Origin: a virus
Lineage: Duplodnaviria > Caudoviricetes
IMG/VR virus record: IMGVR_UViG_2558860250_000001
Span: 32,001-96,000 of that record
DNA length: 64,000 nt
Reading direction: 5' to 3' (one strand)
The position numbers and the translations under genes are program-made. Positions 31,923 to 43,772 of this stretch are shown here, one piece after another (the first letter of the stretch is position 1; the number at the start of each line of letters is the position of its first letter). The notes beneath the pieces are model-generated. The model made no database searches and was not told where the DNA came from. It saw only the letters and a list, made by a program, of their open reading frames with translations.

Positions 31923-32268
31923 TTATTCATCTCCTTTTGAATGTTTGATCGTCCCATCCCATTCATTAAATTTGCGCTTAGAAAAGTTGATTAAATTGTC
32001 ATGATATATATGCTCAGATAATTGTTCCTCGTAATCTAATACAGCATCAATCGCCACTTTCTTGTAATCTATCTGATGTTCTTCCATACCATCGAAATAC
32101 TTAACATATGCCGGACGAGAAAATCGACTATTGCTGGTATGTACTTCAACGCCCAATGAACGGTAAGTAAATGTGTCGCCACAATATGAATTTTTACGCT
32201 TGATGTATCCAACAACAACTTTATATGTACCGTTGGGAGTGGTCACTGGATATTTAGACAAACTGTGT

Positions 32269-39422: not shown

Positions 39423-40273
39423 ACGAGTTAGCGTTGGTGGAAAGTCGCGATGTACGCGAGCGGTACATGGAACGAGTTGATGTGTTGGACAAGGTTAAGG
39501 CGTTGACGATGTTACCGGATGATATGCATGTGGCGGCGAAAATGGTCGCGGATTACTACGAAGTGGACTACAACAACGTCATTAAGCCAGTAATCCACCG
39601 TCACCGTGAAGAACTTGATTCAGACGGCATGGTGGTACTACGTGGCGAGGAGTTAAAGAGATATAAAACAGAGTGGCAAAATGCCACCCTAACTGCAAGG
39701 TCGAATCTTACGCTTCTCCCTCGTCGAGCAGTCCTGAGAATCGGTATGTTGCTGCGTGATTCGGAAGTAGCCAAACAGGTTCGTACATATTTACTCAACG
39801 TTGAAGAGTTGGCGGCACCGGAACATAAGCAAGAAGCAGTGGATATGATGGAAGTGCCGAAGACGTTCCTTGAAGCACTAAAATTGGCGGTGTATTTAGA
39901 AGAAAAGCGCCAGGAACTATTGCTTGAGAATGGCGAGTTGAAAAATACAATATCTGAGATGCAGCCGAAAGTTGATGTATATGAGGATTTGGTTAGCGCA
40001 GAAAATTACATGACCATCGCTACAGTTGCTAAGTCGATGGGATGGGGACGAAATAAATTGTTCGCACTTTTACGAGACAAGAATATTCTGCGACGAGATA
40101 ACACTCCATATCAACGGTATATAGACAATGGATATTTTAGCATACGCATGGTGCCTAAACGCGTAGGTGATAAAATAGAAAACTTTCCACAGACAATTGT
40201 GAGTGCGAGAGGGCATGAGTTTATATACAACATCGTGTGTAAGCATAACGTATTTTATTTGAATAAGGAATAA
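39419..40273 (+). CDS. Phage antirepressor (C-terminal ANT/KilAC domain)
   Basis: RAVLRIGMLLRDSEVAKQVR; PKTFLEAL; QPKVD..D; GRNKLFALLR; PYQRYIDNGYF. Confidence 0.88.
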   Translation: MNELALVESRDVRERYMERVDVLDKVKALTMLPDDMHVAAKMVADYYEVDYNNVIKPVIHRHREELDSDGMVVLRGEELKRYKTEWQNATLTARSNLTLLPRRAVLRIGMLLRDSEVAKQVRTYLLNVEELAAPEHKQEAVDMMEVPKTFLEALKLAVYLEEKRQELLLENGELKNTISEMQPKVDVYEDLVSAENYMTIATVAKSMGWGRNKLFALLRDKNILRRDNTPYQRYIDNGYFSIRMVPKRVGDKIENFPQTIVSARGHEFIYNIVCKHNVFYLNKE

Positions 40274-40291
40274 AATTTACATTATAATATC

Positions 40292-40321
40292 TTGACATTC
40301 ATATAGTATATATAATATAAT
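40292..40321 (+). promoter_or_regulatory. sigmaA promoter upstream of the guide-RNA locus
   Basis: TTGACA-N18-TATAAT. Confidence 0.75.
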
Positions 40322-40352
40322 TAATATAGAAGGAGGGTGGAGAACAATAAAT

Positions 40353-40509
40353 AGGGTGACTGGACACCCTTGAGCCGAGATTACAGTGGTGCGAATACAT
40401 AGGTCAACGATAATATCAACGCACAATACACTCGGCAAGGTGAAATATCACCATCGTTTCGCGCGAAATGTGCGGAACCGACACATACAAATACATATGA
40501 TACGGCAAC
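40353..40509 (+). ncRNA. tracrRNA scaffold A (Cas12f1-type)
   Basis: Stems AGGGTG/CACCCT, GCCGAG/CTCGGC, GGTGA/TCACC, TTCGCGC/GTGCGGA; anti-repeat 40477-40509 complementary to repeat A. Confidence 0.82.
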
Positions 40510-40510
40510 A

Positions 40511-40658
40511 GTTGCAACGTATAAATGTAGCATGTATGTGTTGCAGGTACGCACAATAATCAACGCTCCAACAGTCGGGATCGTTGTTGCAACGTATAAA
40601 TGTAGTATGTATATGTTGCAGGTGAACGTATATATGCGACACACGTAATAAACACAAA
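40511..40658 (+). CRISPR. Mini-array A: 2 repeats GTTGCAACGTATAAATGTAGYATGTATRTGTTGCAG(GT), each followed by a 36-38-nt spacer-sized segment
   Basis: Repeats start at 40511 and 40586 (2 mismatches, period 75). Confidence 0.85.
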
Positions 40659-40814
40659 CGGTCAGCCGGGATGAGCCGAAGCCGAGAAGTGACGCTAGTA
40701 CATAATGGTTGGTAAGTTAAATAAAGCGTCAACACTACAGGCAAGGTGCTATAGGCACCACCGTTCGCGCAAAATAGGCGTGAACCACTGTCATACATGT
40801 CACCGTAATTGTAC
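40659..40814 (+). ncRNA. tracrRNA scaffold B (Cas12f1-type)
   Basis: AAGCCGAGAAGTG, TGACGCT/AGCGTCA, GGTGC/GCACC, TTCGCGC/GCGTGAA; anti-repeat 40784-40814 complementary to repeat B. Confidence 0.82.
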
Positions 40815-40815
40815 A

Positions 40816-40986
40816 GTTGCAATGTATATGATGACTGTATGATTAGTGCGGAAACTCGTTCGATTCTTGTCGTCACTGCCACACACCTAGTTGCAATGTA
40901 TATGATGACTGTATGATTAGTGCGGAAAAATAGACCTAGGAATTTTTTTCGTTTCCTTTGTTGTTGCAATGTATATGATGACTGTA
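40816..40986 (+). CRISPR. Mini-array B: 2 full repeats GTTGCAATGTATATGATGACTGTATGATTAGTGCGG(AAA) + 1 truncated repeat, 2 spacers
   Basis: Repeats start at 40816, 40890 and 40963 (the last is only 24 nt); periods 74 and 73. Confidence 0.9.
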
Positions 40987-41050
40987 GCGCGAACCATAAG
41001 TGATTGCAAAATGCCCACACTTTCGCGCCGAATAGGGAGAGTATAAATAA

Positions 41051-42394
41051 ATGATTGTTAAAACGATGCCATATGAAATTATAAAGCCGTTGTCGTGTGA
41101 TTGGGCTGTATTCGGGGAAATGCTTCGTAGACTAAGAGATGAGTCATTTAGAATAAAAAATTCTGCGATACAATATTTTTACGAAGATGATATTAAAAGA
41201 CGGGAATTTAAAAAGAATAATGGTAGATTCCCTAAAAAAGGTGAATTCTATGGTTCTTCAGTATCCGTATATAATTATGTGCGCCCTGATGTAAAATATT
41301 CGGCGATGGGAAACGTTACCTTGATAAACCAATTAGTCAAAAGTGTATGGATTAAATATAAAGATGATGTTGTAAAAAGAAATATGTCTATACCTAGTTA
41401 CAGACCAAATAATCCGATTGAAATTAATGTTCAGTCCTTCAATTCGTTCGATTTTGGGCAAGCATGTGTTAACTTGTTGTCAAGAAAGGGAGTTGAAGAA
41501 CTCAAAAAGAAATTGTCGGAGGTAAAAAAGAAAAAGAATAAAACAGGTGGTGACGATAATCTAAAATTTACGCAAGAACAATTGAATGGCATATCAACAT
41601 CTGTCACATTTGCATTCAACCCTGGGAAAAACAATGCAAAACAAGTTTTAAATCGCATTATATCGGGCGAGTATAAATTATCATCGAGTAAAATCATATA
41701 CAATGAGCGTAAAAATAAATGGATGTTGGCGGTCGCTTATAAATTTGAACCTAAAACAATCGAGTTAGACAAAAATCGCGTACTAGGCATTGATATGGGA
41801 GTTGTATATCCAGCTTATATGGCAGTGAACTACGATAAATACTGGAGAGATAGCATTGACGGGGGACAGATAGAACAATATCGTAAAACTGTGGAGGCGC
41901 GCAGAAGAAGGCTGCAACGTCAAGCTGCTGTATGTGGCAATGGGCGTATTGGACATGGACGCAAGAAGCGAATGCAACCATTGGAGAAAATAAGCGATAA
42001 GGTGGCAAATTTCCGCAACACCGTAAATCATACATATGCGAAAAAGATTGTACAGAATGCCGTTAAATTGGGATGCGGTACGATACAAATGGAGGAACTG
42101 TCTGGTATAAATGAAAAAGAGACATTTCTAAAGAGGTGGACATATTTCGATCTGCAAAAGAAAATTGAGTATCGTGCAAAGGAATATGGCATAGATGTTA
42201 TAAAAATAAATCCCAAATATACATCACAACGTTGCAGTGAGTGTGGATACATAGATGAGCGAAATAGACCAAAGGTACCCGACCAATCGAAATTCAAGTG
42301 TTTGTCGTGCGGATACGAAACGAACGCCGACTTCAATGCGGCGCGTAACATAGCGACACCATATATTGATAAGATTATATCATTGAACAGTTGA
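41051..42394 (+). CDS. cas12f1: Cas12f1-like (type V-F / TnpB-derived) RNA-guided nuclease, 447 aa
   Basis: RuvC triad intact (GIDMG, IQMEEL, NADFNAARNI); Zn finger CSECG/CLSCG. YEIIKPL..DW..FG, MSIPSY, RIISGEY and GHGRKKR are collinear with AsCas12f1 as recalled; adjacent arrays and tracrRNAs. Confidence 0.9.
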   Translation: MIVKTMPYEIIKPLSCDWAVFGEMLRRLRDESFRIKNSAIQYFYEDDIKRREFKKNNGRFPKKGEFYGSSVSVYNYVRPDVKYSAMGNVTLINQLVKSVWIKYKDDVVKRNMSIPSYRPNNPIEINVQSFNSFDFGQACVNLLSRKGVEELKKKLSEVKKKKNKTGGDDNLKFTQEQLNGISTSVTFAFNPGKNNAKQVLNRIISGEYKLSSSKIIYNERKNKWMLAVAYKFEPKTIELDKNRVLGIDMGVVYPAYMAVNYDKYWRDSIDGGQIEQYRKTVEARRRRLQRQAAVCGNGRIGHGRKKRMQPLEKISDKVANFRNTVNHTYAKKIVQNAVKLGCGTIQMEELSGINEKETFLKRWTYFDLQKKIEYRAKEYGIDVIKINPKYTSQRCSECGYIDERNRPKVPDQSKFKCLSCGYETNADFNAARNIATPYIDKIISLNS

Positions 42395-42578
42395 TTTTAT
42401 ATAATATAATTGATATAATTAAATTATAGGGAAGTGATACATATGGAACGCGATGCGCTACTTCGCATATTAGGCGATTTGCTGTTTGCGCTAGATGATG
42501 CTGACACGAGGTATGTTGGCTACATCAACTCACTAATTGTCGAAACGAAGAAAGCAATTTATTTGATGGACACGGAGA

Positions 42579-43772
42579 GTGGTGCGATTGAGTCTGGAAC
42601 GCAAACCGGATGAATCGGTGTTTGAGTACAAACTGCGCATATGTCGCGAGTTAGACGGAGTGAAAACGTGGCAGGAGATAGCCGATATTGTCAACGATGA
42701 ATTGGGTACGGAGTTTGGAGAGTCAGCCATACGCAAATGGTACGTGCCGATTAGACAGTACATGGATTATCAACGTGACCATGGCAGCACAGACAATGAG
42801 TTGTTGCAACAGATTAAGGATGAACAGTTGCGACTGGAAAAGTTAAAAGTACAGGTGGCGGATGAACGTCGTGCATATAAGGCAATAGTTCGTGAGTCGG
42901 CCAGGTTTGATAATATCATCGACAAGTTGAAATCGTCATTTGATGAGTTGGCGACACTTAAGCCGTTGGAGTGGTCGAAGCCACAAACGTACATATCGAA
43001 TACAGATGGCGTGGTGCTATGGTCGGATTGGCACTACGGAGCATTCGCGGACAACTATTTCAACCAGTTTAACAATGATGTATTCAAGCGACGGTTGGAT
43101 AAGTTGATATCTAAGACGATACAGTATGGCACGTTTAATGGGATCGAGACGCTACATGTGATGAACCTCGGTGACAGTATAAGCGGCCACATTCACGTAT
43201 CAACACGTATTCAGTCAACGGAAAACGTGATTAGTCAGACACAGCATGTGAGCGAGTACATAAGTGAAGCGTTAGTTGAGTTATGTAGACACTTTGGCAA
43301 TGTAAAATATTATCATGTTCGTGGAAATCATGACAGAGTTAACCATTTATCTAAGGATACCAACATTAGCGCAGAGTCATTTTCGGATTTGATTCCGTGG
43401 TATGTGTCGGCACGTACAGGACATGTACGCAACTTGGAAATCATGGAGAACCCATACGATGATGAGATTGCAGTTGCTGATGTACAGGGTCATATTTGTT
43501 TAGGAATCCACGGGCACAAAGATAAGTTGAACAATGTGGCGGCTGATTTAACGTTGATGTTAGGTGTGAAACCAGCGTCGATATTCTTAGGACATTACCA
43601 TCACAGCGCTGAACGTGAATCAACTGGCGGAATTGATGTAATACAAAATCCATCGTACATAGGAACCGACGAATACTCGCGCAACATACGCAAGACAAGT
43701 AAACCGGCACAAAAGATGCTGATATACTCACGCGATGAAGGCAGGATTTGCACATATAACATCGGGCTGTAA
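42579..43772 (+). CDS. Calcineurin-like metallophosphoesterase/nuclease with N-terminal HTH and coiled coil
   Basis: SDWHYG, LGD, GNHDR, HGH, GHYHH. Confidence 0.85.
   Translation: MVRLSLERKPDESVFEYKLRICRELDGVKTWQEIADIVNDELGTEFGESAIRKWYVPIRQYMDYQRDHGSTDNELLQQIKDEQLRLEKLKVQVADERRAYKAIVRESARFDNIIDKLKSSFDELATLKPLEWSKPQTYISNTDGVVLWSDWHYGAFADNYFNQFNNDVFKRRLDKLISKTIQYGTFNGIETLHVMNLGDSISGHIHVSTRIQSTENVISQTQHVSEYISEALVELCRHFGNVKYYHVRGNHDRVNHLSKDTNISAESFSDLIPWYVSARTGHVRNLEIMENPYDDEIAVADVQGHICLGIHGHKDKLNNVAADLTLMLGVKPASIFLGHYHHSAERESTGGIDVIQNPSYIGTDEYSRNIRKTSKPAQKMLIYSRDEGRICTYNIGL

Follow-up and report, generated by a model that had tools for sequence, protein, structure and literature searches.

Two diverged tracrRNA–mini-array cassettes upstream of a Cas12f1 gene on a prophage

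The closest described relative of the system considered here is AsCas12f1 from Acidibacillus/Sulfoacidibacillus, a type V-F1 (formerly V-U3) effector of the CRISPR (short palindromic repeats, clustered and regularly interspaced) class that is a proven double-stranded DNA nuclease and blocks plasmids (Karvelis 2020, PMC7229846; Bigelyte 2021, PMC8548392; PDB 7WJU, 8J12). Its trans-activating CRISPR RNA (tracrRNA) has been located experimentally between the gene and the array, its protospacer adjacent motif (PAM) is YTTN (both PMC8548392), and the lack of cas1, cas2 and cas4 is the norm for its clade (PMC7229846). The present analysis concerns a related locus at positions 40292–42394 of a 64-kb window, by which we mean the whole stretch of DNA analysed (positions 32,001 to 96,000 of virus record IMGVR_UViG_2558860250_000001); coordinates are positions within this window unless another sequence is named. 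We read the locus as a working V-F1 module without adaptation genes, carried by a prophage, equipped with two guide cassettes and aimed at least at one plasmid family, and we assign this reading a probability of roughly 0.6.

The locus resembles that of AsCas12f1 in its effector, which belongs to the same clade (45% identity) and retains the catalytic triad and zinc ribbon, in the use of long tracrRNAs of one family, and in the absence of cas1, cas2 and cas4 (Cas2 and Cas4 were not searched for separately here); the T-rich 5′ flank of its single known target would also appear to fit YTTN. The differences lie in the arrangement. In the native AsCas12f1 locus (L015 in our collection), a single tracrRNA separates the gene from one long array downstream, whereas the window has two cassettes, each a tracrRNA with a mini-array, upstream of the gene and behind one promoter. 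Its scaffolds are trimmed, the internal hairpin between AAGG and CC being missing, and it lies on a prophage, with arrays of two to three repeats only.

Other CRISPR systems and mini-arrays carried by phages and viruses are known to serve in conflicts among mobile elements (reviewed in PMC11656645), among them the type I-F system of ICP1 and Cas12r of the Thermus phage Lalka (bioRxiv 10.64898/2026.04.20.719267). Like Cas12r, the system in the window is encoded by a phage and has a short array without adaptation genes of its own, and like phage- and virus-borne systems it carries a spacer whose target is a different mobile element in the same host. However, Cas12r needs no tracrRNA, while ICP1 carries a full class 1 system with adaptation; unlike both, the target here is a plasmid co-resident with the prophage, and the guides are laid out as duplicated tracrRNA–array cassettes.

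Among miniature genome editors Cas12f1 is a leading one, and engineering has focused mainly on its long guide RNA. The locus offers ready-made single-guide layouts and a trimmed scaffold subtype, and two diverged scaffold/repeat pairs, presumably serving one protein, would suit multiplexing without repeated sequence. It also gives a view of how CRISPR systems of mobile elements that lack adaptation may keep or renew their guides, through duplication of whole cassettes, and it presents a testable conflict in a culturable host for which RNA sequencing (RNA-seq) data exist: a prophage nuclease against a co-resident plasmid, with a host CRISPR array that nearly matches the prophage.

Layout of the locus and its effector

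All elements of the locus lie on the + strand, in the order promoter, scaffold A, mini-array A, scaffold B, mini-array B and cas12f:

40292–40321, + strand: promoter of sigma-70/sigma-A type (TTGACA, 18 bases, TATAAT; 12 of 12 consensus positions), the best site in 40100–42600
40349–40509, + strand: scaffold A, tracrRNA-like, with stem 1, stem 2 (CCGAG/CUCGG), the AAGG..CC hairpin, stem 4 and anti-repeat A (about 40480–40509)
40511–40636, + strand: mini-array A, with repeat A1 (40511–40547), spacer A1 (40548–40585), repeat A2 (40586–40622) and a remnant of 14 nucleotides (nt; 40623–40636)
40655–40814, + strand: scaffold B, tracrRNA-like, with a degenerate stem 1, a bulged stem 2 and anti-repeat B (about 40786–40814)
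40816–40994, + strand: mini-array B, with repeats B1 (40816–40852/4) and B2 (40890–40928) and a shortened terminal repeat from 40963
40853/5–40889 and 40929–40962, + strand: spacers B1 and B2 of mini-array B
40987–41050, + strand: 5′ leader of cas12f, read from sequence as a CGAACC..AAGYGA motif followed by a ribosome-binding site
41051–42394, + strand: cas12f1 gene, intact, 447 amino acids, matching Pfam Cas12f1-like_TNB (6e-24) and, weakly, OrfB_IS605

Repeat searches, RNA folding and a promoter scan bear out the layout given in a preliminary description of this DNA, namely one promoter, two scaffold–array units and an intact cas12f-like gene. The two units are diverged, aligning at 71% mean column identity, and as that description held they stand behind one promoter: a terminator-like site was not detected on the + strand upstream of cas12f. 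Transcription is expected to start near 40328–40330, and a single strong promoter of this kind would give one primary transcript comprising cassette A, cassette B and the cas12f messenger RNA.

The best PDB matches of the protein are AsCas12f chains, with expect values (E) of 1e-102 to 4e-105. Residues D248, E348 and D427 align with D225, E324 and D401 of AsCas12f1, and the CSEC and CLSC zinc-ribbon motifs are present; with 447 amino acids, inside the 400–500 expected of the type, and with an intact split RuvC domain and zinc ribbon, the protein has the make-up of a V-F1 effector and falls in the AsCas12f1 clade. Since the positions that align with the AsCas12f1 catalytic triad are conserved, it is most likely a cutting nuclease like AsCas12f1, and for the same reason a nuclease-dead regulator was considered and set aside. 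In type V-F1, a dimer of the protein on one guide RNA cleaves double-stranded DNA. The cas12f gene is the only gene with a TNB domain in the 4.35-Mb genome, present as a single copy, in keeping with the earlier view that one compact nuclease is served by both cassettes.

Two guide cassettes of one tracrRNA family

Each array is preceded by a structured stretch of about 160 nt. The predicted folds of A and B (z-scores of −3.9 and −2.6) share the same order of stems and end in a hairpin formed in cis between the anti-repeat and the first repeat, which are separated by one base in both units. The preliminary description had reported the same ordered stems with compensatory changes; the order is indeed shared, but stem 1 of B is degenerate and its stem 2 bulged, and while the change GGUGA/UCACC versus GGUGC/GCACC is genuinely two-sided, the differences in stem 4 are one-sided (G-U/G-C/A-U). 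Because the anti-repeat runs, after that one base, into the first repeat, the scaffold, repeat and first spacer could fold in cis as a natural single-guide RNA, as structure prediction and covariation in the family suggest, and this RNA would presumably be bound by Cas12f. Later repeats would pair with the tracrRNA in trans.

Pairing between the anti-repeats and repeats is biased towards cognate partners. The cognate duplexes are predicted at −27.7 (A) and −24.7 (B) kcal/mol and the cross pairs at −18.4 and −17.4 kcal/mol, a difference of 6–10 kcal/mol, and the claim that each anti-repeat prefers its own repeat thus stands. The term 'orthogonal', which had been applied to the cassettes, is not retained: cross pairings still reach about −18 kcal/mol and both scaffolds come from one tracrRNA family, and the bias is a preference rather than proof of orthogonality.

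Membership of that family was assessed with a covariance model (R1) built solely from other loci. Its source is an alignment (A6) of ten scaffolds, from which the window locus was excluded and in which L015 was included, the latter identified as the native AsCas12f1 locus by scores of 949–952 bits to the AsCas12f chains 7WJU and 8J12. Two-sided changes occur at 21 of the 26 pairs predicted for this alignment, which replaced an attempt with MAFFT and RNAalifold on three type-I scaffolds, which gave a shifted, unusable structure. Across the whole window, R1 finds scaffold A as its sole match (40349–40482, 34.2 bits, E 2e-6). With filters off, over 5 kb, scaffold B is the second-best match, full length and in register (40655–40788, 12.6 bits, E 0.016). 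When 22 scaffolds are aligned to R1, 91% of cells are paired, compared with 25–43% for slid partners, and two-sided changes number 174, where shuffles give 53 ± 6, although an alignment fitted to the model is biased towards structure. The R1 matches to A and B, together with the anti-repeat:repeat duplexes, place both scaffolds with the tracrRNAs of type V-F1. Both are of a trimmed subtype, in which AAGG...CC closes a hairpin of simple form; in most relatives a further hairpin is inserted there. A search of Rfam with region 39500–43000, at E up to 1, returned no family.

These guide RNAs also bear on whether the protein could be a TnpB-type transposon nuclease working with an omega-RNA instead of a CRISPR effector. 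TnpB with its omega-RNA, and likewise the transposon–CRISPR intermediate TranC (LaTranC, PDB 9JFO), pairs a small RuvC nuclease with a scaffold and guide that can be one continuous RNA, which the guide-fused scaffolds here resemble; the weak match to Pfam OrfB_IS605, and the naming of relatives as 'transposase' in their sources, point the same way. However, the guide RNAs lie upstream of the gene and not over its 3′ end, R1 finds no scaffold downstream, and true repeat–spacer–repeat units with anti-repeats are present. The best structure-database matches are to Cas12f1, with TnpB appearing only at E 2e-6 and TnpB and TranC together showing very distant similarity (E 1e-5 to 2e-6). The gene is single copy and without transposon context (tnpA was not searched for separately), and the scaffold belongs to the AsCas12f1 tracrRNA family. 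We regard a TnpB-type system as highly improbable.

The arrays themselves are of V-F1 character, being two mini-arrays that adjoin the effector, with repeats of 37–39 nt and spacers of 35–38 nt. The two copies of repeat B (40816–40854 and 40890–40928, 39 nt) are 100% identical, and a partial third copy begins at 40963; reported earlier simply as a partial repeat, it is present but probably represents a terminal repeat that has been shortened, not a clean truncation. The two copies of repeat A (40511–40547 and 40586–40622, 37 nt) are 95% identical, differing at 2 of 37 positions, and both changes lie in the second copy and weaken its duplex with anti-repeat A (−21.5 kcal/mol, against −27.7 kcal/mol for the first). 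Unit A had been described as repeat–spacer–repeat–spacer. Its first spacer holds, but the supposed second spacer opens with a 14-nt repeat-like piece (40623–40636), so that one true spacer may be all that unit A contains.

Such features could mean that only cassette B works, with A a spare or decaying copy, transcribed yet yielding no productive guides. The weaker pairing of the second A repeat and the repeat remnant that seemingly replaces the second spacer would fit this, as would the lack of any target for spacer A1 in the genome, in phage or plasmid collections, or in 44 genomes of the family. Unit B is moreover conserved with the closest related locus, L002 (76% identity over 120 nt to unit B there), in which the upstream unit is of another subtype. 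On the other side, scaffold A has all its stems intact and fits R1 far better than B does, cassette A is the one proximal to the promoter, and contigs assembled from RNA-seq runs cover it, including a contig from run X5 (40374–40564) that takes in scaffold A and repeat A1 together with 17 nt of spacer A1. We consider it unlikely that cassette B alone is functional.

A spacer matching a co-resident plasmid

Spacer B1 matches the second replicon of the same genome, C2 (124,737 bp, 46.6% GC), at 37 of 37 positions (C2:20796–20832), or at 100% over C2:20798–20832 if two ambiguous A's are left out, and the identity ends precisely at the boundaries of the spacer. In type V-F1, protospacers are flanked on the 5′ side by a T- or C-rich PAM; here, with the spacer taken to start at 40853, the 5′ flank directly adjacent to the protospacer is TTTC. 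This appears to fit YTTN, a comparison that rests on one protospacer and on a PAM taken from AsCas12f1, which may not be that of this ortholog. The protospacer lies in frame within a DUF6744 gene, between genes for a sliding-clamp homologue and MoxR/VWA proteins. Because C2 encodes an Alp7A-type segregation actin and a TraG/VirB4-type ATPase, it can be classed as a plasmid with conjugation-type genes. The preliminary description had suggested possible use against competing mobile elements, and the perfect match to a co-resident plasmid supports this.

The target is also found beyond this strain. A contig of genome G014, from a second species of the genus, carries it with one mismatch in the 30 nt searched, and RNA-seq run X16 carries the same variant; in the raw reads of this run the plasmid-like target alone is present and the prophage is absent. 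The G014 site (L275:1500–1560) differs by two synonymous changes, one turning TTTC to TTCC on the PAM side and one at protospacer position 14. Such changes in G014 and X16 may reflect neutral drift or escape, two sites being too few to tell. Searches with spacers and repeats against phage and plasmid collections gave chance-level matches only, and exact 23–24-mers of three spacers were not found in viral contigs. A mobile-element target is thus known for one of the four spacer-like segments, B1, which matches C2 and the G014 contig.

The carrier of the module is a phage, as had been proposed. The host element is an island of about 105 kb with 43% GC, in a chromosome of 52% GC with local flanks of about 57%. 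Since the island encodes a portal protein, head protease, tail sheath, tape measure, baseplate and serine integrase, and the window carries replication genes along with a ribonucleotide reductase, methyltransferases and an antirepressor, the locus is borne by a myovirus-like prophage. Cas1 occurs just once in the genome, at C1:104875, which is about 2.9 Mb from the locus and beside another array (no separate searches were made for Cas2 and Cas4), and the locus accordingly has no adaptation module. The absence of cas1, cas2 and cas4 had been singled out earlier; as far as Cas1 was searched it stands, but it is ordinary for the former V-U3 clade (PMC7229846), of which it was the distinguishing mark.

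That other array belongs to the host. It occupies C1:106491–106923, contains six copies of a 36-nt repeat and adjoins an open reading frame of 548 amino acids that matches Cas1. We take the product, judging by its length, to be a Cas4–Cas1 fusion, and the repeat is presumably that of Alicyclobacillus Cas12b (V-B). The first spacer of the array matches the prophage at 33 of 35 positions (C1:3109075–3109109, equivalent to L270:16076–16110). The host array thus holds a near-match to the prophage, and the prophage a perfect match to the plasmid.

Contigs that cover the locus were assembled in RNA-seq runs of this organism from two studies. In run X3, one contig (40252–42281) extends from the promoter region through both cassettes and over almost the whole of cas12f, with a 74-nt skip that we read as a collapse of the identical B repeats. 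Pieces over both scaffolds were assembled from runs X5 and X9, the latter from the second study. The contigs, which show neither ends nor strand, fit co-transcription and perhaps stable processed species. The plasmid gene that contains the target is strongly represented in the same RNA runs, at a depth of about 300, and its presence alongside the locus indicates that target and guide coexist.

This coexistence raises the question whether the module cuts at all in this host, where it could be a silenced or inhibited relic, or could bind and repress without cleavage. Prophage, spacer and target are found together in one complete genome and in the RNA-seq runs of the same organism, with the target gene abundant in the libraries. 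Yet the zinc ribbon and the residues aligned to the AsCas12f1 triad are intact, the relative AsCas12f1 is a proven nuclease that blocks plasmids, and both the gene and cassette B are conserved in L002. That the module does not cut here seems to us rather improbable.

Several observations do weigh against a working, plasmid-directed module. A perfect target shares the cell with an apparently intact and apparently transcribed system, which argues against constitutive cleavage. Transcription, ends and processing cannot be proved by contigs from RNA libraries; prophage genes nearby appear at similar depth, so that DNA may have been carried over. Three of the four spacer-like segments are without a known target, and the PAM comparison is borrowed. 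Scaffold B scores weakly against the family model (12.6 bits), and the second repeat of unit A pairs more weakly than the first.

We nevertheless favour a working V-F1 module with two guide cassettes, in which cassette B would be armed, through its first spacer and beside a T-rich flank, against a plasmid family of this genus. Because spacer B1 perfectly matches a co-resident plasmid beside such a flank, the job of the module is most likely conflict between mobile elements. Since the perfect target coexists with the prophage, interference is probably conditional or inhibited: it may occur only on induction or fresh infection, or may be blocked in the lysogen.

Recurrence of two modules and minor features

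A census of related loci with the covariance model found two scaffold–array modules per cas12f gene in 5 of 21 loci (L002, L010, L014, L019 and L267). L002, the closest relative with 61% protein identity, has two tandem modules upstream, as in the window. In L010, L014 and L267, one module lies upstream and one downstream of cas12f, with two repeat types in L014, and L019 has two tandem modules downstream whose copies are 92% identical. A sixth case is L266, with arrays of different repeats on both sides of cas12f; these are two long arrays (L266:1–335 and 1990–2500), of which the upstream one runs off the contig, with its scaffold outside the visible sequence. The two-cassette layout is therefore recurrent in the clade and not a near-unique architecture; the preliminary description had set it against characterised V-F1 loci with one tracrRNA and one repeat type. 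No description of two tracrRNAs or cassettes for one Cas12f was found in the literature searched.

Two-module loci are scattered on the protein tree, and L267 has a near-identical sister, L009, with a single module, from which it follows that gain and loss of modules are frequent. In the single-module loci L003, L005 and L009, the tracrRNA directly adjoins the first repeat of a normal array downstream, and in L014 and L015 some 100 nt lie between it and the array; the geometry of a natural single guide is thus frequent in the clade but not universal. Cassette B is shared by the window and L002, but the cassettes next to the promoter belong to different scaffold subtypes, which suggests turnover at the promoter-proximal position, as judged from these two sequences. 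The second cassette would have arisen by duplication or recombination of a whole tracrRNA–array unit, an event seemingly repeated in the clade, and such duplication may be how systems without adaptation gain or keep extra guides.

Taken further, the unit of memory in phage- and plasmid-borne Cas12f1 systems without adaptation might be the whole cassette of tracrRNA, anti-repeat and mini-array, not the spacer, with cassettes being duplicated, swapped and stacked about a single cas12f gene. The window and L002, sharing B and differing next to the promoter, could then exemplify a swap, and L019 a young copy. Co-evolution of each anti-repeat with its own repeat might protect tandem copies from recombining, and the prophage might fire its plasmid guide only on induction or infection, in a three-way fight that includes the host array. 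We offer this only tentatively and do not think it the likelier course of events.

Additional features of the related loci concern their guides. Downstream of cas12f in L010 (2277–2440) there is a second scaffold with one repeat-like element and no further repeat, a layout that resembles a TnpB omega-RNA with a single fixed guide. Mini-arrays of the longer subtype in L002 (408–495) and L010 (773–916) have a period of 55–61 nt, with spacers of about 20–25 nt, which is near the length of mature guides and unlike that of normally acquired spacers.

A megablast of the locus against the phage collection gave no match, and by protein the matches there were limited to phage Mgbh1 and a gut phage, at about 39%. 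A single-protein search for related loci in viral contigs found none, and a degenerate scaffold pattern, which proved too loose, returned at least 120 chance matches each in viral and metagenome contigs, none with Cas12f among the matches listed. The flanking genes of L002, L264, L267, L003 and L004 have no homology to the window flanks, which left no common synteny to draw on.

The leader and promoter have counterparts elsewhere. The motif CGAACC, two bases, AAGYGA occurs in the window (40987–41010), L002 (about 786–806) and L013 (about 2470–2490) among otherwise different spacers, and in L002 and phage Mgbh1 it stands at the equivalent place. In the three loci it follows the last degenerate repeat and precedes the ribosome-binding site of cas12f, and it looks like the 3′ side of stem 4 joined to the beginning of an anti-repeat. 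The sequence after the terminal repeat, taken as a guide, has no above-chance target in the genome. Finally, a distantly related phage-like contig (L264:2370–2430) has an AT-rich promoter much like window 40300–40345, whose leader ends AGAAAGGAGG ahead of its own scaffold cassette and is repeated ahead of the next gene; the likeness suggests that the two loci share a type of phage promoter.

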